A stretch of DNA of 64,000 nt from an uncultured Gammaproteobacteria bacterium (GCA_964524845.1 CAZGFX010000001.1:293034-357033); one strand, 5' to 3'. Numbered from the stretch's first letter, positions 6,521-60,658 are shown. Numbers and translations: made by a program. Notes: a model not told the origin generated them from the letters alone.

Positions 6521-6605
6521 GGACACGTGGCGAAATTGGTATACGCGTACGCTTCAGGAGCGTATGGAGCAATCCGTGAGGGTTCAAATCCCTCCGTGTC
6601 CACCA
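6521..6605 (+). tRNA. tRNA-Leu (anticodon CAG), class II with long variable arm, CCA encoded.
   Basis: Acceptor GGACACG/CGTGTCC, anticodon stem-loop TACGC-TTCAGGA-GCGTA, T arm GAGGG-TTCAAAT-CCCTC, discriminator A, then CCA. Confidence 0.85.
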
Positions 6606-9020: not shown

Positions 9021-9086
9021 ATTTAAATATTCGCTTATATTGTATCATGATCCGAAACGATAAAAAAGACATTATATATAAAATTA

Positions 9087-9367
9087 TTCGCGCCATGGTC
9101 GGAGATACCCCGCACGATTCACTCCGTTCATCTGCAGGTCACGTCGCTCGCGAGTGATGTGACGGGCCACGTCGTTCGCGCGAACGACGTGGCTGGGCGA
9201 GCCGGACAATAACGATACAATTCTATATAAAATATTTTCTGTGCAATATTATTCGCGCCATGGTCGGAGATACCCCGCACGATTCACTCCGTTCATCTGC
9301 GGGGCGAGCGGGACAACAACAATACAATTCTATATAAAATGTTTTCTGTGCAATATTGTTCGCGCCA
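9087..9367. repeat. Tandem array (2 full units plus the proximal flank) of a copy of the tRNA-Pro(GGG) 3' end with its flank. Each unit is a spacer, an inverted H-a hairpin (CCCCGCA-loop-TGCGGGG), then GTATCTCCGACCA+TGGCGCGAA. The distal unit carries a 66-bp insertion with two perfect palindromes.
   Basis: The 22-mer ttcgcgccatggtcggagatac occurs at 9087, 9252 and 9359 (the last being the real tRNA 3' end). Units are about 107 and 165 bp. The hairpin at 9273..9304 is an inverted copy of the H-a hairpin found on tRNA 5' flanks. Confidence 0.8.
9138..9192. repeat. Two adjacent CG-centred perfect or near-perfect palindromes (gtcacgtcgctcgcgagtgatgtgac 9138..9163 and ccacgtcgttcgcgcgaacgacgtgg 9167..9192) inserted into the stem of an H-a hairpin.
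   Basis: They are present in repeat unit 1 but absent from the otherwise identical unit 2, which has intact tgcgggg. The insertion point lies between ctgc and gggg. Confidence 0.75.
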
Positions 9368-9444
9368 TGGTCGGAGATACGGGACTTGAACCCGTGGCCT
9401 CAAGCACCCCATGCTTGCGCGCTAGCCAACTGCGCTAATCTCCG
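9368..9444 (-). tRNA. tRNA-Pro (anticodon GGG), CCA encoded.
   Basis: rc reads CGGAGAT-TA-GCGC-AGTTGGCTA-GCGC-G-CAAGC-ATGGGGT-GCTTG-AGGCC-ACGGG-TTCAAGT-CCCGT-ATCTCCG-A-CCA. Confidence 0.85.
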
Positions 9445-9554
9445 ATAAATAAGATTGATAGTTTATAAAATTTTTCTACTCATAAAGCAAAAATATTTTG
9501 GTAACCTGCCCCGCGGACGAGTGGTAACGAGTCTTGCGGGGCGCTAATCCCCGA
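9445..9554. repeat. tRNA 5'-flank module: AT-rich spacer (9445..9499), H-a hairpin ggtaacctgccccgc..gcggggc (9500..9542), then a 14-nt copy of the tRNA-Pro 5' end (gcgctaatccccga, 9541..9554).
   Basis: Same architecture as at the other tRNA loci. The copy has 1 mismatch to the adjacent tRNA 5' end. Confidence 0.8.
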
Positions 9555-9569
9555 CCACAGCACGAAGAA

Positions 9570-11127: not shown

Positions 11128-11204
11128 TGGTCGGGGATATCGGACTTGAACCGACGGCCTTGCGCACCCGAAACGCACGCTCTAGCCAACTGAGCTAATC
11201 CCCG
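11128..11204 (-). tRNA. tRNA-Pro (anticodon CGG), CCA encoded.
   Basis: rc reads CGGGGAT-TA-GCTC-AGTTGGCTA-GAGC-G-TGCGT-TTCGGGT-GCGCA-AGGCC-GTCGG-TTCAAGT-CCGAT-ATCCCCG-A-CCA. Confidence 0.85.
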
Positions 11205-11711
11205 ATGAATAAATTAGATGAATGAACAAAACGTTTTTCTATTCATAAAATACTTATATTTTGGTAACCCGCCCCGCAGACGAATGTAATGAGTCGTGCG
11301 GGGAGCTAATCCCCGATGAATAAATTAGATGAATGAACAAAACGTTTTTCTATTCATAAAATACTTATATTTTGGTAACCCGCCCCGCAGACGAATGTAA
11401 TGAGTCGTGCGGGGAGCTAATCCCCGATGAAAAGCGACTTTTAAATGAAGTGCTATATAACGCTTGAGAAAACTTTAATAATTTGGTAACTGGTCCTCCG
11501 AAGCTTTAGCGTAGGAGGAAGCTCCAGCCATAGGCTGGTCAGCCTCTGGCTGAAATCCCCGATGAATAAATTAGATTAATGAACAAAACGTTTTTCTACT
11601 CATAAAACATTTATATCTTGGTAACCCGCCCCGTCACGTCACTCGCGAGCGACGTGACCCGTCACGTCACTCGCGAGTGACGTGATCCGCAGACGAACAA
11701 AAACATACACC
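11205..11711. repeat. Array of tRNA 5'-flank modules upstream of tRNA-Pro(CGG). Two identical 111-bp units cover 11205..11428 (spacer, H-a ggtaacccgccccgcagacgaatgtaatgagtcgtgcggggag, copy gctaatccccgat). A GC-rich structured block (11480..11549) ends in the copy aatccccgat. A third unit follows whose H-a (11619..) is interrupted by two 26-bp palindromes (11633..11658, 11661..11686).
   Basis: Exact direct repeats are visible in the sequence. The palindrome pair is inserted after ggtaacccgccccg, the equivalent position to the insertion at 9136. Confidence 0.85.
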
Positions 11712-14097: not shown

Positions 14098-14174
14098 TGG
14101 TCGGGGTGGCGGGACTCGAACCCACGACCTCTTGGTCCCAAACCAAGCGTTCTAGCCAACTGAACTACACCCCG
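14098..14174 (-). tRNA. tRNA-Pro (anticodon TGG), CCA encoded.
   Basis: rc reads CGGGGTG-TA-GTTC-AGTTGGCTA-GAAC-G-CTTGG-TTTGGGA-CCAAG-AGGTC-GTGGG-TTCGAGT-CCCGC-CACCCCG-A-CCA. This tRNA has no H-module on its 5' flank. Confidence 0.85.
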
Positions 14175-20672: not shown

Positions 20673-20750
20673 TGGGGTGATCAACGGGGCTCGAACCCGC
20701 AACCTTCGGGACCACAACCCGATGCTCTAACCAATTGAGCTATGACCACC
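20673..20750 (-). tRNA. tRNA-His (anticodon GTG), with encoded G-1, C73 and CCA.
   Basis: rc reads G-GTGGTCA-TA-GCTC-AATTGGTTA-GAGC-A-TCGGG-TTGTGGT-CCCGA-AGGTT-GCGGG-TTCGAGC-CCCGT-TGATCAC-C-CCA. Confidence 0.85.
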
Positions 20751-21016
20751 ATGAAAAGTAATTTTATACGAGGAAATTATATCATATAACACTAACGCAG
20801 ATAGCTCGGTAACCCGCCCCGCAGATCGAACGAAAGTGAGATTGTGCGGGGAGCTATGACCACCATGAATAACTATGTGGAAACGAATTAATTATATCGA
20901 AATGATATAACATGGATAACTCGGTAACCCGCTCCGTCACGTCATTCGCGAACGGCGTGACCCGCGTAATTGAGCGAAGCGATGGATTTTGGTGGCTCCG
21001 CCACGAGCGAAGCGAG
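20751..21016. repeat. Two tRNA 5'-flank modules between tRNA-His and tRNA-Arg. Module 1 is a spacer, H-a (20808..20853) and the copy ctatgaccaccatg (20854..20867). Module 2 is a spacer and an H-a variant interrupted by the 26-bp palindrome gtcacgtcattcgcgaacggcgtgac (20936..20961), running into the tRNA-Arg 3' flank (gagcgaagcga-motif repeats).
   Basis: Direct sequence comparison with the modules at 9445, 11205 and 21093. The palindrome again sits after ggtaacccgc(t)ccg. Confidence 0.8.
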
Positions 21017-21092
21017 TGGCGCGCCGGGCAGGAATCGAACCTGCGACCTACTGCTTAGAAGGCAGTTGCTCTATCCACTGAGCTACCAGCGC
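21017..21092 (-). tRNA. tRNA-Arg (anticodon TCT), CCA encoded.
   Basis: rc reads GCGCTGG-TA-GCTC-AGTGGATA-GAGC-A-ACTGC-CTTCTAA-GCAGT-AGGTC-GCAGG-TTCGATT-CCTGC-CCGGCGC-G-CCA. Confidence 0.85.
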
Positions 21093-21243
21093 ATGAGAAG
21101 ATGTTTTCTAAATGATAAGTTACTTAATATCGGAGAAAACCACAATGGCTCGGCAACCCGCCCCGCGTAATTGAGCGAAGCGAAATGTTGCGGGGAGCCT
21201 TGCCCCGTAACACGCCGAAGGTGTGTGTACGAGGTACCAGCGC
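21093..21243. repeat. tRNA-Arg 5'-flank module: spacer, H-a variant ggcaacccgccccgc-gtaattgagcgaagcgaaatgtt-gcggggag (21152..21197), a 35-bp extra GC segment, then the copy gtaccagcgca.
   Basis: Same spacer/hairpin/tRNA-5'-copy architecture. The loop shares gagcgaagcga with sequence on the 3' side of tRNA-Arg. Confidence 0.75.
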
Positions 21244-21399
21244 ACAAGAATACAATTTCTAAATGACTGTGAAAAACACACGCATCATACATAAAAAAAA
21301 CAGATTAGTCAACGATATGTGTTTTTATTTTTAAGCTAATTTTAGACATCAAGCGGTGTTATCTTGTGACATAATCTATTAAAAAATATCATATCAAAA

Positions 21400-22004: not shown

Positions 22005-24848
22005 ATGAATTTAAAATTACTTAAATTTTTATTTTGTTCTGCACTTATTGTTTTTTCAATTTGTTTATTTTCTCGTGTTTCAAATGCGGCTCCTGTCACG
22101 GTTGCCGCATTTGAATTAAATGGACTAATAGGAGATGAGGCAACTGTAACAGCAACGACGAACGATACTAATGTTTATACAGCAATACTATCCAGAGGTT
22201 CGGGCATTAATCCTTCGGTTCTTAACAATGCATTTTCATCAACCGCTTTCGTTGTCGGAGGAACAAAAACAGATGCGATAAGTAATAATGAATATTATCA
22301 GTTTGAACTCGAGACAAAATCGAAATATAAACTTTCTCTAAATTATATAAATCTTAATTTAAGAAGAAGTCCAACAGGCCCAAACGCATACCAATGGCAA
22401 TATAGTTTAGATGGTTTTGCTACTGCTGGAACAGACGTTGGCGCAGAAGGCTCTTATACAGGGACAGAAAACGCCGGTCTTGCTATGCCACAGGTTGTTC
22501 TTTCAGGAATTCCTTCTCTACAAAACCTCGAATCAGGTACAAGAGTTACGTTTAGATTATATGCATGGGGATCTACAAACTCAAGCGGAACACTAGGAAT
22601 AGGACGCTTGGCTGGAAATGATCTTTTAATTAATGGCAGTGTTGATTTAATTCTTGCTGCTGGTTTTGATCCAAATGGGCTACTCGGAAACGAAGCAACA
22701 TTCAATTCAACAACAACTCATGTTCGTCTAAACACATCAACTTTATCACGCGGAGTCGGAATAAATCCATCCGCTCTTGCAAATGCTTTTTCTGCAACTA
22801 CTTTCGTTGTTGGCGGAACAAAAGCAGATGCCATAAGTAATAATGAGTATTTTCAAGTTCAAATAGAGGCAAACACTGGGTATAATGTTTCTCTTAATTA
22901 CATTTTTTTTAATTTACGTCGAAGTGCCACAGGACCGAACGCATACCAATGGCAATATAGTCTTGATGGTTTTTCAACGTCCGGAACAGATGTAGGAGAT
23001 GAGGGATTATATACGGGAACAGGTACGAACGGGCTCGCGATGCCACAAATTAATTTATCTACTGTACCAGCATTACAAGGTGTAAAATCAGGAAATATAA
23101 TAACACTTAGACTTTATGCATGGGGAGCTACAAATGCAGGAGGTACTTTAGCAATTGGCAGATTAACCGGAGACGATTTGGATATATACGGATCATTTGC
23201 ATTAAATAATTATACATTAACTTACACGGCAGGAGTAAATGGATCTATTGTTGGTGTTTCGCCACAAACAGTTAATCATGGTAGTGATGGAAGCACTGTA
23301 ACTGCCTCTCCTAATCCTGGATATCATTTTGTTAACTGGAGCGATACATCAACTGCAAACCCAAGAACAGACACTAATGTAACAGGAAATATCTCAGTCA
23401 CAGCGAACTTTGCAATTAACACATATACATTAACTTACACGGCAGGAGTAAATGGATCTATTGTTGGTGTTTCGCCACAAACAGTTAATCATGGTAGTGA
23501 TGGAAGCACTGTAACTGCCTCTCCTAATCCTGGATATCATTTTGTTAACTGGAGCGATACATCAACTGCAAACCCAAGAACAGACACTAATGTAACAGGA
23601 AATATCTCAGTCACAGCGAACTTTGCAATTAACACATATACACTCACCTACACAGCAGGAGTCGGTGGATCAATAACAGGCATGTCCTCTCAAACAGTAA
23701 GTCATGGTAATGATGGTTCCGCAGTTACGGCAACTCCGAACGCCGGATACTCTTTTGTTGACTGGGATGATGGATTAAGAACTAGCACCAGAACTGACAC
23801 GAACATAACAGGAAACAAATCGGTTATAGCTACATTTCAGGTAGATAGACAATCGTCTTCATCCAGTGGCGGAGGAAGTTCAGCTGTATATTCTCCTCCG
23901 GGGTCTGGAACAGGATCTACGGATCGCATCATTCCAATGGATGAAACAAGAGATGTAAGGAACATAGAAACAGACGGAATAAATATTCTTGGTTATATAG
24001 GATCAAAGGCTGTTTTTGAAACAATAGAAAGTAAATCTTTTATAAACGGAAAACACTCGATAACAATTACAAATGTGGATCTTTTTAATAATATAGTTGT
24101 TATTCGCGTAGAATCGACTCCTCAGATAATAAGTCTAAAATTGAAAGAGTTGGCGTATGTTGATTTGGACGATGATCTTGTGCCTGATATATCAATTCAA
24201 TTTAATTCCATATATGTTAATCGAGTCGAACTTACAACAAAATCAATTGTGACTAAAAAAACTGGCGTCGCAACAACAAACCAAGAGATAACACAAACAA
24301 CAAGCAACTTACAAGCTTCTTGCAAACTTATATTTACACGAGATATTAAATCAGGCGCAACAGGAGACGATGTTAAAGAACTTCAAAAATACCTAAACTC
24401 AAAGGGCTTTATTATCACTGAAAAAGGTCCGGGAGCTCCCGGCAATGAGACTACGAAGTTTGGACGATTAACATACAACGCGCTTATCAAGTTTCAGAAA
24501 GCGAATAATATATCACCAATATCTGGAGTGCTTGATAGTACGACTAAAAAATATATAAAGTGCTCAGATGATAAACAAACAGAAACCGCGCCAAAACAAT
24601 CCACTTCGATAAAATTCACTCGCGATCTCAAACCTGGCATGACAGGAGATGATGTTAAAGAATTGCAAAAATATCTCAATACAAATAGCTTTATAATAAC
24701 GGACAAAGGTCCGGGAGCTCCCGGCAATGAGACTACGAAGTTTGGGCGATTAACATACAACGCACTTATCAAGTTTCAGAAAGCAAATAATATAACTCCT
24801 GCGAATGGATATCTGGATTCAACAACAAGAGAATTGCTGAATAAATAA
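22005..24848 (+). CDS. Large cell-surface protein. It has a signal peptide, 2 copies of a ~190-aa N-terminal domain, 3 Listeria-Bacteroides-type repeats (YTLTYTAGVNGSIVGVSPQTV...), a Ser/Gly linker and 2 C-terminal peptidoglycan-binding (PG_binding_1) domains.
   Basis: 947 aa. Internal repeats are visible in the protein. The C-terminal repeats (GATGDDVKELQKYLNSKGF...GNETTKFGRLTYNALIKFQKANNI) match the PGBD consensus. Confidence 0.7.
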   Translation: MNLKLLKFLFCSALIVFSICLFSRVSNAAPVTVAAFELNGLIGDEATVTATTNDTNVYTAILSRGSGINPSVLNNAFSSTAFVVGGTKTDAISNNEYYQFELETKSKYKLSLNYINLNLRRSPTGPNAYQWQYSLDGFATAGTDVGAEGSYTGTENAGLAMPQVVLSGIPSLQNLESGTRVTFRLYAWGSTNSSGTLGIGRLAGNDLLINGSVDLILAAGFDPNGLLGNEATFNSTTTHVRLNTSTLSRGVGINPSALANAFSATTFVVGGTKADAISNNEYFQVQIEANTGYNVSLNYIFFNLRRSATGPNAYQWQYSLDGFSTSGTDVGDEGLYTGTGTNGLAMPQINLSTVPALQGVKSGNIITLRLYAWGATNAGGTLAIGRLTGDDLDIYGSFALNNYTLTYTAGVNGSIVGVSPQTVNHGSDGSTVTASPNPGYHFVNWSDTSTANPRTDTNVTGNISVTANFAINTYTLTYTAGVNGSIVGVSPQTVNHGSDGSTVTASPNPGYHFVNWSDTSTANPRTDTNVTGNISVTANFAINTYTLTYTAGVGGSITGMSSQTVSHGNDGSAVTATPNAGYSFVDWDDGLRTSTRTDTNITGNKSVIATFQVDRQSSSSSGGGSSAVYSPPGSGTGSTDRIIPMDETRDVRNIETDGINILGYIGSKAVFETIESKSFINGKHSITITNVDLFNNIVVIRVESTPQIISLKLKELAYVDLDDDLVPDISIQFNSIYVNRVELTTKSIVTKKTGVATTNQEITQTTSNLQASCKLIFTRDIKSGATGDDVKELQKYLNSKGFIITEKGPGAPGNETTKFGRLTYNALIKFQKANNISPISGVLDSTTKKYIKCSDDKQTETAPKQSTSIKFTRDLKPGMTGDDVKELQKYLNTNSFIITDKGPGAPGNETTKFGRLTYNALIKFQKANNITPANGYLDSTTRELLNK
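23206..23836 (+). repeat. Three tandem ~210-bp intragenic DNA repeats, the first two nearly identical, encoding the Listeria-Bacteroides repeat domains.
   Basis: Direct repeats begin at 23206, 23416 and 23626. Units 1 and 2 are almost 100% identical at the DNA level. Confidence 0.85.
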
Positions 24849-54034: not shown

Positions 54035-54144
54035 TGAAAAAATATATTTATTTAGACAAAGCAAAAAAGACATAGTCTGGCTGTGCCGGCCCGAACCCTG
54101 AACTTGTTTCAGGGGTAGGCTGGCCGTGCCATCCGAAGCGCGAA

Positions 54145-54232
54145 GCGCGTAGGATGGAGGAGAGGAAGGGATTCGAACCCTCGATCCCTTGCGGGACACA
54201 GCGTTTCGAGTGCTGCGCATTCAACCACTCTG
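54145..54232 (-). tRNA. tRNA-Ser (anticodon CGA), class II, CCA encoded, unusual U73 discriminator.
   Basis: rc reads GGAGAGG-TG-GCA-GAGTGGTTGAA-TGC-G-CAGCA-CTCGAAA-CGCTG-TGTCCCGCAAGGGATC-GAGGG-TTCGAAT-CCCTT-CCTCTCC-T-CCA. The anticodon loop is identical to E. coli serU. There is an A31-C39 mismatch. Confidence 0.75.
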
Positions 54233-54459
54233 CCACCTCTCCATATGAGAAAATATTACAACCAAAGTATACAATTAAACAAGAAAAATGTTTTAAACAA
54301 GGAGCTTGCCCTGTAGTTCGAGCGTAAGCGAGAACGTACCAGGGCCACCTCTCCATATGAGAAAATATTACAACCAAAGTATACAATTAAACAAGAAAAA
54401 TGTTTTAAACAAGGAGCTTGCCCTGTAGTTCGAGCGTAAGCGAGAACGTACCAGGGCCA
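54233..54459. repeat. Two identical 112-bp tRNA 5'-flank modules upstream of tRNA-Ser(CGA). Each is a spacer, the H-b hairpin ggagcttGCCCTGtagttcgagcgtaagcgagaacgtacCAGGGC, and the copy cacctctccat.
   Basis: Exact direct repeat, which also generates identical peptide stretches in spurious ORFs 54048..54386 and 54256..54516. The spacer carries TTGTTT-N18-TAATAT (promoter-like) in tRNA orientation. Confidence 0.85.
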
Positions 54460-54594
54460 CCTCTCCATATTTAAAAACAATGTTATAAAGAAACAATTGT
54501 AGATTATCAAAATCATTATTTAAAAACAACTACAAAAAGCGCGTTTCATCGCAAAGAAAATCCCCGCCTGCTTTTGTTGCAAACGGGGATAAAA

Positions 54595-56303: not shown

Positions 56304-56406
56304 AAAATTATTTTTTAATCATATAAACAAAAGATTTGTTTGTGTTTTAATTCAAAATTATATTAAAAGAAATAGCATGGCGAAGTCATGTCTCTCACGA
56401 GTGATG

Positions 56407-56495
56407 TGGCGGAGGGAGAGGGATTCGAACCCTCGGTACCTTTACGGTACGCCACCTTTCCAAGATGGTGCACTCGACCACTATGCGACCCCTCC
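56407..56495 (-). tRNA. tRNA-Ser (anticodon GGA), class II, CCA encoded.
   Basis: rc reads GGAGGGG-TC-GCA-TAGTGGTCGAG-TGC-A-CCATC-TTGGAAA-GGTGG-CGTACCGTAAAGGTACC-GAGGG-TTCGAAT-CCCTC-TCCCTCC-G-CCA. Confidence 0.85.
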
Positions 56496-56866
56496 ATACG
56501 AGAAAACTATATTACAAACAATAAACAAATCCTAGCAAATACTTTTTGTAGTTGAGTCTGCCCCGCAATCAGCCTTTGGCTAATGTGCTGGGGCGACCCC
56601 TCCATACATTGTTTTCTTTGTTGTTATAATATATCCGACACAACTGCTTGACCACCCCCGCCTAAGCGGGGTCCCGCTTCGCGTGATGTGCGACCCCTCC
56701 ATAAATTACACTCCTTTTGTTATTATGATGTGTTCAACAAAATTGTTTGACCACCCCCGCCTAAGCGGGGTCCGGCTTCGCGTGATATGCGAAACAACTA
56801 CACTAGAAAACTATATTACAAACAATAAACAAATCCTAGCAAATACTTTTTTTAGTTGAGTCTGCC
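56496..56866. repeat. Array of three tRNA 5'-flank modules plus a duplicated spacer upstream of tRNA-Ser(GGA). Unit 1 has a bulged H-a-like hairpin (56554..56595) and the copy acccctccatac. Units 2 and 3 have the tight hairpin gaccaCCCCCGCctaaGCGGGGtcc and the copy tgcgacccctccata. The array ends in a second copy of spacer 1 (56795..56866).
   Basis: Read directly from the sequence. Spurious ORFs 56212..56535 and 56836..57048 overlap it. Confidence 0.8.
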
Positions 56867-56965
56867 GTGCAATAACTCCACAATACTACACGAAAAAACG
56901 CTTTATGCCAACATGAAAAACGGTTGATTTTGATACAAAAATGTGTTAATTTCCTATTGTTCTCT

Positions 56966-57123
56966 TTTCGTGGGTGAGTACCCTGTACAATCTCGCTAAC
57001 GCTCGATTTACATGGCAGGGCTTCCCGCACAATCTCACTTTCGTTCAATTTGCGGGACGGGTTACCGAACTATTTATGTCGTGTTAGTATGATATAATCT
57101 ATTCATACAAAAATACTTTTCGT
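56966..57123 (+). repeat. tRNA-Ile 5'-flank module on the + strand. It comprises the copy ttttcgtgggtgagta, the H-b hairpin (56981..57020), an inverted H-a hairpin (57021..57070) nearly identical to the reverse complement of the tRNA-His H-a, and an AT-rich spacer containing TATAAT (57093..57098).
   Basis: The modules keep the same orientation relative to the tRNA although this tRNA is on the opposite strand. That shows the association is with the tRNA 5' end, not with the genome strand. Confidence 0.8.
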
Positions 57124-58987: not shown

Positions 58988-60658
58988 ATGCAAAACAAAA
59001 TTAAAATATTATACGCAAGTGCGTTAATTATATTATTAATACCCTTTCAAGTGTTTGCGCTAAACGATGTACAAATAACTGCTTCGTTTGTTTTTGAATT
59101 AAAAACATCCGACACGATTGTTGACACAACAATAAACACGACTGCGACAGGACAAGTGACAAATTTTAACGTCAATTTAAATTACATTGATATCACACTT
59201 GATAATGCGTCAGAGGTTACATTTAACACCGCTGTTGGCGGACAGTATATTAAAATAACAAAACAATCCGGCTCAAATGATTATACCGTCAACCCAACAT
59301 GTCCGACAACGAGCGCGACACTGAGAGGAAATGGTGCGCAAGTTGTTTTACGATTAGAGGTTCTTACGACGAACTTATGCCCAAATTTTGCTCCTGTCGC
59401 ATCATCTGTAAATATAACAGGACTAACAAATATTGGTGCCATTCTTACAGGACATTACACTTATTCAGACGCTGACGGAGACAGCGAAGGCATATCTACT
59501 TTCAAATGGCTTCGTAATGGAAGCATTATTACTGGAGCCACATCCACTTCATATATGACTACACAGTCCGATAGTGGCGCAATCATAAAGTTCGAGGTTA
59601 CGCCAGTTGCTCTAACAGGTACCTCGCCAGGTACGTCAGTTCAAAGCAGTGGTCTCCAACTGAGTAGTAGTGGTGGCGGAAGCGGATCTGTTCCTTCTTC
59701 GTCTGTTGGTTCTGGCCAATCAAATTATTATATTGAGATGTTTAAACAAATAGCGCTTGGTCAAATCACAGAAAATGGCACAAATATTTTAGGATATGCT
59801 GGTTCAAGTTTTGTTTTTGATGTTGTTGTGAGTAAAAACCTAGAAATATCGCGACATCAAGTTGTTTTCGCTAATTTAGACATGTTAAAAAATGTTTTAA
59901 GAATAAACGTCTTCTCAACCCCTCAGGTGTTTGAATTGTTAATTGGAGAAGAAAAAAATATTGATTTAGATAATGATGGTATTCATGATGTTTCTGTTAA
60001 ATATAATAACTTGTTAGTTAACCGAGTTGATTTAACTGTAAAACAGCTAGTTTTTGACGAGAGTGGTTCGATAATTAAACAATTATCTTTTGAAGAAAAG
60101 GACTCATCGACAACAACTGATTCAAAAAAATATTGCGATCTTTTTACTAGAGATTTAAAAACAGGTATGATCGGAGAAGATGTCAAAGAATTACAAAAAT
60201 ATCTTAATAAAAATGGCTTCGTTCTTGCTAACTCTGGCCCCGGCTCAAAAGGCAATGAAACCACAACGTTCGGCGCACTCACTCGAGAAGCGCTCAAAAA
60301 ATTTCAAAGAACAAACGATCTTAATATCACTGGAATTTTTGATCTTAAAACAAGAGAGTATTTAGGATGCACGACAAATAATGTGTCCCAAAAAGAAACA
60401 GCGACAAGCAAATATATATTTACTAGAAATTTAAGCACCGGCACAATCGGAGAAGACGTCAAAGAATTACAAAAATATCTTAATGACAATGGCTTTGTTC
60501 TTGCTAATTCTGGACCCGGTTCAAAAGGCAATGAAACCACAAAGTTCGGCGCACTCACTCGAGAAGCGCTCAAAAAATTTCAGAAAAACAATAAGATTAC
60601 TCCAGCAAATGGATACTTTGGATCGGTTACAAAAGATTTTATAAATAATCAAAATTGA
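58988..60658 (+). CDS. Cell-surface protein with two C-terminal peptidoglycan-binding domains, paralogous to the C-terminal half of 22005..24848.
   Basis: Signal peptide. A Ser/Gly linker plus NILGYAGSSFVF...VNRVDLTVKQ domain shared with the 22005 gene. 2 x PGBD (GMIGEDVKELQKYLNKNGFVLANSGPGSKGNETT.FGALTREALKKFQ). Confidence 0.7.
   Translation: MQNKIKILYASALIILLIPFQVFALNDVQITASFVFELKTSDTIVDTTINTTATGQVTNFNVNLNYIDITLDNASEVTFNTAVGGQYIKITKQSGSNDYTVNPTCPTTSATLRGNGAQVVLRLEVLTTNLCPNFAPVASSVNITGLTNIGAILTGHYTYSDADGDSEGISTFKWLRNGSIITGATSTSYMTTQSDSGAIIKFEVTPVALTGTSPGTSVQSSGLQLSSSGGGSGSVPSSSVGSGQSNYYIEMFKQIALGQITENGTNILGYAGSSFVFDVVVSKNLEISRHQVVFANLDMLKNVLRINVFSTPQVFELLIGEEKNIDLDNDGIHDVSVKYNNLLVNRVDLTVKQLVFDESGSIIKQLSFEEKDSSTTTDSKKYCDLFTRDLKTGMIGEDVKELQKYLNKNGFVLANSGPGSKGNETTTFGALTREALKKFQRTNDLNITGIFDLKTREYLGCTTNNVSQKETATSKYIFTRNLSTGTIGEDVKELQKYLNDNGFVLANSGPGSKGNETTKFGALTREALKKFQKNNKITPANGYFGSVTKDFINNQN

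Follow-up and report, generated by a model that had tools for sequence, protein, structure and literature searches.

What are the short palindromes that interrupt hairpins beside tRNA genes in the DNA analysed here, and what could have placed them there? The stretch, which we call the window, comprises 64 kb (64,000 nucleotides, CAZGFX010000001.1:293034-357033 of assembly GCA_964524845.1) and is labelled as coming from an uncultured Gammaproteobacteria bacterium. A sequence-only reading had described five copies of a 26-bp palindrome inserted at one point in the stem of a recurring hairpin, here called H-a, and had assigned them to the palindrome-associated transposable elements (PATEs) of the IS200/IS605 (Y1 HUH) type or to repetitive extragenic palindromes (REPs) mobilised by RAYT. 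In our analysis the insertions stand and the assignment does not: we read the window palindromes as solitary, partly decayed copies of a 24-bp insertion element found throughout the ultra-small Patescibacteria, with a small GIY-YIG nuclease as its candidate mobiliser, and we put the probability of this reading at roughly 55%.

Insertion units in the window

The window is a chromosome segment of about 36% GC with ordinary housekeeping genes. The 26-nt pattern proposed earlier matches it four times when up to three mismatches are allowed (0.00 expected), and the palindromes lie where they had been placed. A 22-nt core, CACGTCNNTCGCGANNGACGTG, matches five times at the same tolerance (0.01 expected), and a palindrome scan adds the CCACGTCGTTCGCGCGAACGACGTGG variant at 9167-9192, giving six copies in total (Table 1). 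The five copies described earlier are all real, but a decayed sixth, with its core at 56387-56408, had been overlooked. Of the five, those at 11662-11685 (24 bp) and 9167-9192 (26 bp) alone are perfect palindromes; the other three carry one or two mismatched pairs. The consensus is N-CACGTC-NN-TCGCGA-NN-GACGTG-N', 24 bp long and with no coding capacity. Neither the palindrome nor the H-a hairpins match any Rfam family, whether at the gathering thresholds or at E ≤ 0.5. Every copy (6/6) lies less than 500 bp from a tRNA gene.

Five of the six copies come after the CCCCG^C of an H-a-type hairpin sequence, in agreement with the single stem position claimed earlier, but the hairpin is complete only at 9108-9197; its 3′ arm is missing at 11629 and 20930, which leaves one intact hairpin among the three sites. 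Filled and empty repeat units do stand side by side. Aligned with their empty paralogues, the filled units show a clean 28-column gap at 20933-20960 (alignment A3) and two tandem 28-bp units at 11634-11689 (alignment A2). At 9139-9196, alignment A1 and direct reading give an insert of 58 bp (28 + 30) in place of the 66 bp originally assigned to position 9136, and the 51 nt to its left are identical between the filled and empty units. Each insert is bordered on both sides by a 4-bp direct repeat that the earlier account lacked. With the site written as CCCCG^CAGA, this repeat is CCCG (at 9135-9196 the + strand shows CGGG), with a point change to CCAG, CCTG or TCCG in some copies. Because the same four bases flank each palindrome, one insertion amounts to 28 bp, that is, the 24-bp palindrome plus a 4-bp target duplication. 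The double insertion sits inside the hairpin 9108-9197, and the empty counterpart of its target reads CGGG.

The loop sequence of each filled hairpin is that of its own neighbouring empty paralogue, and the site at 9136 holds two palindrome subtypes, a C...G copy with an additional central CG and a T...A copy. From this likeness and the pair of subtypes we infer that the three sites were struck independently, as had been supposed. The sixth copy lies outside any hairpin and abuts the 3′ end of tRNA-Ser(gga), whose CCA (56407-56409) consists of the base preceding the core and the first two core bases; this register proved to be typical phylum-wide.

Table 1. Palindrome copies, target copies and empty hairpins (positions in the window; strand given as "." for all features)
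Feature	Position	Strand	Description
Double insertion with three target copies	9135-9196	.	CAGG 9135-9138, CGGG 9163-9166, CTGG 9193-9196
Palindrome copy 1	9139-9162	.	24 bp, outer pair T...A, 2 mismatched pairs; core 22-mer 9140-9161
Palindrome copy 2	9167-9192	.	Perfect 26-bp variant, arms CCACGTCGTTCGCG and CGAACGACGTGG, additional central CG
Empty H-a hairpin	9273-9304	.	Paralogue of filled hairpin 9108-9197
Empty H-a hairpin	11383-11414 (identical copy 11272-11303)	.	Paralogue of filled unit at 11629
Palindrome copy 3	11634-11657	.	24 bp, 1 mismatched pair; CCCG flanks 11630-11633 and 11658-11661
Palindrome copy 4	11662-11685	.	Perfect 24 bp; flanks CCCG 11658-11661, TCCG 11686-11689; hairpin 3′ arm missing downstream
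Palindrome copy 5	20937-20960	.	24 bp, 2 mismatched pairs; flanks TCCG 20933-20936, CCCG 20961-20964
Empty H-a hairpin	21161-21195	.	Loop CGTAATTGAGCGAAGCGA, same as filled unit at 20930
Palindrome copy 6, decayed	56386-56409	.	Core 56387-56408; 3 transitions, all at CpG

Distribution, target and recent movement

A scan for the 22-nt core across one genome per species (596 Gb) returned at least 120 loci, which we handled as 8-kb tiles, and the same palindrome is present in more than 100 Patescibacterial loci. Simple arithmetic predicts about 10-17 chance matches in 596 Gb. The roughly 12 matches in high-GC Actinobacteria, Myxococcota and similar taxa show neither symmetry nor flanking repeats and thus fit that expectation. 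The remaining listed loci belong to Uhr-, Morani-, Peregrini-/Peri-, Doudna-, Jackson-, Kerfeld-, Buchanan-, Woese-, Wirth- and Saccharibacteria or carry generic labels. A phage origin was considered and rejected, as a viral contig collection gave only one palindrome match. The window U32 peptidase has named relatives only in Patescibacteria (62-65% identity), so the window comes from a candidate phyla radiation (CPR) bacterium that is scarcely represented in public data. Locus L059, also labelled "Gammaproteobacteria", is CPR by its PBP2 relatives, its PBP2 being 80% identical to a Patescibacteria protein. The label "uncultured Gammaproteobacteria bacterium" appears to be wrong for a series of metagenome-assembled genomes from co-assemblies (L004, L009, L012, L014, L039, L044, L055, L057, L059 and others).

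Flank and symmetry statistics were taken from 111 copies in listed loci with GC ≤62%; other counts use 123 copies. In 94% of the 111, the bases that adjoin the core on either side pair with each other, which extends the palindrome to 24 bp, and the central variable dinucleotides are mirror images in 103 (GT/AC 43, GC/GC 41, GG/CC 13, AC/GT 5). The four bases outside the 24-mer are directly repeated, with 71-75% identity per position and perfectly in 58 copies. The ends of this repeat are complementary (C..G in 67 copies, T..A in 13), and its pattern is therefore YNNR. The duplicated sequence itself differs from site to site (CAAG, CTTG, CCTG, TAAA and others); when tabulated phylum-wide, the flanks did not bear out the fixed CCCCG that had been expected. 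Direct repeats of at least 5 nt border 59/123 copies, as opposed to about 4 after flank shuffling. The outermost palindrome base matches the target's next base in 57% of cases versus 36% expected, which would also allow for a 5-6-bp duplication followed by symmetrisation.

Four loci carry, at the same tRNA position, the variant CCTGTCG(T/C)TCGCGA(A/G)CGACAGG (L164 1437-1465, L194 1419-1447, L156 362-390, L203 1427-1455), in which a two-base change is mirrored in both arms and the new arm is the tRNA-Trp duplication CCTG. Correction of one arm from the other on a hairpin template is established for quasi-palindromes, and symmetric variants such as this one (CCTGTCG...CGACAGG) support it here. 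Short tandem arrays with a 29-31-bp period, which combine half or degenerate palindromes with a tRNA 3′ end and CCA, stand downstream of a full palindrome in two loci (L067 4223-4290, L205 1270-1400).

The favoured phylum-wide target is the 3′ end of tRNA genes, and not the hairpin that the sequence-only reading had put in this role. As many as 24 of the 123 copies overlap the CCA of a tRNA called by ARAGORN, all in exactly the same register, and further copies lie within 200 bp of a tRNA. When the flanks are read against the tRNA 3′ end, the duplicated bases are tRNA positions 70-73 and the element's own first bases, C-CA, stand in for the tRNA CCA, which leaves the tRNA gene intact. Where ARAGORN reports an encoded CCA at palindrome-bearing tRNAs, those bases come from the element. 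At non-tRNA sites the duplicated four bases fall in an apical hairpin loop in 6/39 cases, compared with 75/1560 random YNNR sites (p 0.012). Reconstructed empty sites do not differ from random ones in mean folding energy (p 0.68), and a crude ORF-overlap test of the sites (ORF, open reading frame) gave 59% versus 88%. H-a hairpins were not found in the other fetched loci, and their stem, CGCCCCG^CA, appears to resemble tRNA-Trp ends such as CGCCCCTG^CCA. Directly 3′ of the CCA of tRNA-Ser(cga) in the window (54115-54157) is another hairpin, whose stem pairs the CCA (CCATCC...GGATGG); it is laid out as the palindrome is where other tRNAs end.

In a natural population, gain or loss of the element has taken place recently. 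When exactly 28 bp, consisting of the 22-mer plus GCCTGC, are taken out of metagenome contig L201, it is identical to a second such contig, L199, across 997 nt (empty allele CTCCCCTGCCA; filled allele CTCCCCTGC-[22]-GCCTGCCA). At L059 a tRNA-Glu gene has a palindrome directly upstream of it; four related genomes (PBP2 76-86% identical) contain the identical tRNA gene, and in all four the palindrome is lacking. The upstream spacer has diverged there, and the comparison shows no clean duplication. Together, the empty window paralogues, these empty orthologues and the strain-level 28-bp pair uphold the view that the palindromes are insertions and not an ancestral motif. A lineage-specific metagenome pattern spanning the filled or the empty site at 20930 gave no match. 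Exact-protein look-ups for the window yielded two short Logan contigs (L001 and L122, SRR12133403), and the look-up of a third window protein returned nothing on record. Both contigs come from the source sample and end inside repeat units, which thus coincide with short-read assembly breaks.

The adjoining GIY-YIG nuclease gene and competing explanations

Just downstream of tRNA-linked palindromes lies a small ORF of 85-86 aa that begins MWYFYVLQS. This gene is 40-200 bp downstream of palindrome-bearing tRNAs (Trp, Ser, Asp, Gln) and in the same orientation. A hidden Markov model built from 11 such ORFs and run on the palindrome-selected loci brought the number of GIY-YIG ORFs there to 19, of which 18 lie within about 200 bp of a palindrome; for all 11 family members the order is tRNA, palindrome, gene, co-oriented. 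For the converse selection we took 80 metagenome loci by protein similarity alone, 60 of which have at least 300 nt upstream of the gene. A palindrome (≤3 mismatches) occurs within 450 nt upstream of the gene in 52/60 and a co-oriented tRNA in 49/60 (Trp 17, Ser 14, Asp 12, Gln 6), and within the same loci the palindrome is found at 43/51 gene-adjacent tRNAs versus 0/7 other tRNAs. The link between palindrome and nuclease therefore holds from either selection, by palindrome or by gene.

The protein scores 47.6 bits against the Pfam GIY-YIG family PF01541 (cut-off 22.6; E 2e-12), and its own family numbers at least 631 clusters; among the 120 listed, every taxon-named cluster is CPR. Residues Y5, Y17, R27, H31 and E51 are invariant in 40 sequences, and by analogy with I-TevI and UvrC we take them to be the catalytic Tyr, Tyr, Arg, His and Glu. 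An hmmsearch against the PDB matched UPF0213 (1zg2, E 1.4e-5) and SLX1 (E ~1e-3). The predicted structure (pLDDT, a per-residue confidence score, 91.4) is a single compact domain with no further DNA-binding domain. Foldseek matched it at probability 1.00 to Slx1, UPF0213 BH0048 (1zg2) and HIGLE, with UvrC at ≤0.3; template modelling (TM) scores were 0.62-0.69 for Slx1 and HIGLE and 0.51 for the 1zg2 nuclear magnetic resonance model. Sequence and predicted fold place the nuclease in the Slx1/UPF0213 branch rather than with the UvrC, homing or restriction types. Its clades follow the tRNA type, and palindrome subtypes are mostly uniform within a clade, a pattern that fits co-inheritance as well as recognition.

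In tRNA-Trp cassettes, a conserved leader with a short hairpin, GGTCGTGCCAAC ATG A.. CAAAAGAACGC.GAAAGGCGC.CTTTTGT, lies between palindrome and nuclease ORF (L045 3590-3670, L201 600-700, L161 1420-1500, L091 5570-5620); a regulatory RNA is one possibility for it, a short upstream ORF another. A second small GIY-YIG family, of the typical UPF0213 type (FYVY...YIG.T.D...R...H), also adjoins tRNAs, including immediately upstream of tRNA-Trp (L020 838-1146, L054 2199-2471, L080 2424-2651; also L007, L026, L031, L083 and L124 6364-6738), and in some Uhrbacteria tRNA-Trp has a small GIY-YIG gene on either side.

The linkage suggests that the palindrome is either moved by the nuclease or serves as its landing site. 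As mobiliser, the nuclease would recognise a palindrome that has probably been extruded into a hairpin or cruciform. It would cut in a staggered manner at the borders of the palindrome and at YNNR targets, and filling and sealing by host polymerase and ligase would leave the 4-bp duplication. The tRNA promoter would drive the gene, copies that stand alone, as in the window, would be non-autonomous, and hairpin-templated correction would keep the variable positions symmetric. The H-a stem may have been struck repeatedly because it is tRNA-3′-end-like and consists of strongly transcribed, hairpin-forming DNA beside tRNA genes. The GIY-YIG domain of I-TevI cuts at CNNNG, according to the relevant part of PMC12663268, which is similar in style to the CNNG seen here. 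The earlier proposal, in which one single-copy enzyme gene serves a palindrome that is itself non-autonomous, comes close to these findings, except that the candidate enzyme is GIY-YIG and not Y1/RAYT.

Several points weigh against the nuclease as mobiliser. There is no GIY-YIG ORF in the 64-kb window, and most solitary copies, in about 85% of palindrome-selected loci, stand in 8-kb tiles that lack a nuclease gene; the co-location could reflect an independent liking of both partners for tRNA 3′ ends. Host functions have to be assumed, because a lone nuclease cannot ligate, and we know of no target duplications made by GIY-YIG or Slx1 enzymes. Lastly, given the 57% versus 36% match at the outermost base, the duplication may measure 5 or 6 bp rather than 4 bp. 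The more far-reaching proposal would be a new class of prokaryotic transposable element, in which a stand-alone 85-aa Slx1-like GIY-YIG nuclease cuts and pastes a cruciform-forming 24-bp palindrome without any DDE, HUH, serine or tyrosine enzyme. Its gene would ride on tRNA promoters, and part of the widespread UPF0213/YhbQ family of small GIY-YIG proteins would gain a first function; we offer this only tentatively and regard it as rather improbable.

The strongest rivals invoke a DDE transposase or treat the palindrome as a landing site for the cassette. The former, which we consider unlikely, would make the palindrome a minimal MITE (miniature inverted-repeat transposable element), that is, two abutted 12-bp inverted repeats moved in trans by a DDE-type transposase with 4-bp staggered cuts, with the GIY-YIG cassette simply sharing the tRNA niche. 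Inverted-repeat ends (the two 12-bp arms) and a short 4-bp YNNR duplication are the classic MITE signature, and most solitary palindromes have no GIY-YIG gene nearby. However, about 0.85 Mb of palindrome-bearing loci, window included, contain neither a separated half-site pair nor a larger element with such ends: when half-palindromes, exact or with 1 mismatch, were sought as the ends of an autonomous element and their flanks compared, only pairs of full palindromes came up, and there is no transposase among the 40 window ORFs. A straight duplex of 24 bp would hardly be able to join its own ends in a paired-end complex, and the variable positions stay symmetric, which is not expected of independent inverted repeats. 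A merely shared niche also sits poorly with a palindrome at 43/51 nuclease-adjacent tRNAs and at 0/7 others.

The second of these rivals, in which the nuclease cuts palindromes and break repair copies its gene into palindrome-bearing tRNA ends, as in homing, and the palindromes either spread by other means or are repair scars immune to re-cutting, strikes us as improbable too. It would account well for the cassette borders. Some cassettes have, at either border, a direct repeat made up of tRNA 3′ end, palindrome, duplication and CCA (38 bp in L176), others (L149, L161) have a bare tRNA 3′-end repeat without palindrome as their right border, and L199 and L201 both carry the cassette, with the palindrome as their sole difference. 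Such tRNA 3′-end repeats at the borders are compatible with homing and not diagnostic of it. The central TCGCGA, moreover, presumably resembles the cut sites of dimeric GIY-YIG restriction enzymes. Homing into palindromes would nevertheless leave unexplained the solitary copies with 4-bp duplications at non-tRNA sites, and the nearest relatives of the predicted fold are structure-specific Slx1 proteins, not sequence-specific restriction or homing enzymes. As modelled, the protein is an 85-aa catalytic core with no further DNA-binding domain.

It is very unlikely, in our estimate, that the palindrome is a non-mobile functional hairpin (for tRNA 3′ processing, or a terminator or insulator) that is inherited vertically and spread by recombination. 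Its exact placement after the discriminator base in many tRNAs of distant CPR lineages with the CCA kept, the paired changes that preserve its symmetry, and its position between a tRNA and a co-oriented ORF would all suit such a function, and a secondary RNA role of the palindrome is possible. Against it stand the site-specific 4-bp duplications at dozens of unrelated non-tRNA sites, the empty orthologous and paralogous sites, the strain-level 28-bp pair and the decayed window copies. Least credible of all is the original assignment to IS200/IS605 PATEs or RAYT-mobilised REPs that enter single-stranded hairpin DNA 3′ of a fixed pentanucleotide: for all that the elements are short GC-rich extragenic palindromes, that one hairpin site was used repeatedly and that targets show some enrichment in hairpin loops (6/39 versus 75/1560), it is contradicted by 4-bp YNNR duplications whose sequence varies between sites, by clean 28-bp indels, by a symmetric loop-less palindrome with no unpaired GTAG/CGTC tag and no distinct left and right ends (compare the relevant part of PMC3733652), and by the enzyme genes, the 40 window ORFs including no Y1/HUH (tnpA, RAYT) or TnpB gene by Pfam scan and the palindrome-flanked gene in other loci encoding a GIY-YIG nuclease.

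Comparison with known systems and other repeats of the window

REP/REPIN-RAYT systems and IS200/IS605 PATEs share with the element a short GC-rich extragenic palindrome, many non-coding copies and a small single enzyme gene flanked by the repeats. Theirs form imperfect stem-loops that bear an unpaired tag and have two different ends, whereas the palindrome here is perfect and loop-less. They depend on Y1 HUH enzymes and enter 3′ of a fixed tetra- or pentanucleotide with no duplication of the target, unlike the 4-bp YNNR duplication and GIY-YIG gene described here. Bacterial MITEs (Correia, MITEAba12) are likewise non-autonomous, with inverted-repeat ends and a short target duplication, but they measure about 50-400 bp, contain internal sequence and have an identifiable parent insertion sequence; our palindrome consists solely of two 12-bp arms set end to end, and the palindrome-bearing loci yielded no parent insertion sequence. 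Free-standing GIY-YIG homing endonucleases (I-TevI, Seg) resemble the cassette in being selfish nuclease genes beside a conserved gene and in their C...G cleavage motif. They differ in having a separate DNA-binding domain, in spreading by break repair without target duplication and in lacking a palindromic satellite; the protein here, a single-domain 85-aa catalytic core, is in its predicted structure nearest to Slx1/UPF0213. The latter (YhbQ-like) proteins provide the best sequence and fold matches (1zg2, 1ywl, 7cq2, 4xlg, 6sei). Slx1 is a repair enzyme that works with Slx4 and cuts branched DNA, including flaps, junctions and stem-loops; the bacterial UPF0213 proteins have, to our knowledge, no assigned function, and we know of no tie of either group to a specific repeat or to tRNA genes.

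In behaviour, the nearest counterparts are the mitochondrial GC clusters: the GC42 clusters of yeast are very small palindromes, rich in GC within compact AT-rich genomes, with direct repeats of 2-3 bp on either side; they often lie near tRNA genes and have a constrained structure and no known enzyme (PMC4478555). The PstI palindromes of Neurospora flank tRNA genes (Yin et al. 1981, in the form in which PMC4478555 cites it). These clusters differ from our element in being organellar, looped and about 30-50 nt long, with no partner nuclease gene known and no CCA-register insertion described. The CGTC-tagged REPs share a CGTC motif, a CCA tail and the want of a known dedicated transposase (Di Nocera et al. 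2013, PMC3733652, in its relevant part). There, however, CGTC is an unpaired 5′ tag and the stems of 8-9 bp start with A/T pairs and enclose loops of 4-5 nt, while here CGTC is base-paired inside a stem that has neither loop nor A/T start; the same part of PMC3733652 places them mostly in Alphaproteobacteria and mentions no target duplication.

The 24-base mobile palindrome is apparently undescribed: full-text literature searches found no account of its sequence or of the combination of GIY-YIG gene, palindrome, tRNA and CPR, and a recent survey of Patescibacteria tRNA genes covers group I introns only (PMC13011429). If the nuclease link is functional, the element would be the smallest known bacterial transposable unit and the first case in which a structure-specific GIY-YIG enzyme drives a transposition-like system, and small UPF0213/Slx1-like proteins would gain a testable function. 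An 85-aa nuclease with a defined 24-bp DNA partner could also be of practical interest. Even without that link, a 28-bp unit aimed at tRNA 3′ ends and recently gained or lost (in one strain-level pair) is unusual in very small bacterial genomes. At tRNA gene ends it is a phylum-wide feature of Patescibacteria, replacing the encoded CCA and placing a 12-bp hairpin on the tRNA 3′ end.

Seven of the nine window tRNA genes are embedded in tandem units (9044-9560, 11205-11700, 20750-21250, 54100-54460, 56480-56880, 56950-57120); tRNA-Pro(tgg) at 14098 and tRNA-Leu at 6521 have none. The 5′ units comprise an AT-rich promoter-like stretch, the first 9-16 nt of the same tRNA, one GC hairpin or two, and CGGGTTACCGAGC, which is conserved; the 3′ units comprise a hairpin, the 3′ acceptor strand, CCA and a trailer. 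They look like repeated partial duplications of tRNA gene ends. Two perfect tandem duplications of the unit made up of promoter, tRNA start and hairpin, at 11192-11413 (111 bp x2) and 54232-54455 (112 bp x2), are 100% identical, which points to very recent unequal exchange or slippage. A GAGCGAAGCGAG-like motif is common to the loops of otherwise different GC hairpins (20817-20851, 21161-21195, 54310-54345, 56975-57060). Elsewhere in the window, 22005-24848 and 58988-60658 encode two large secreted-type proteins with InlB B-repeat or immunoglobulin-like domains and peptidoglycan-binding domains, and both genes contain the same internal DNA repeats (families D1-D3).

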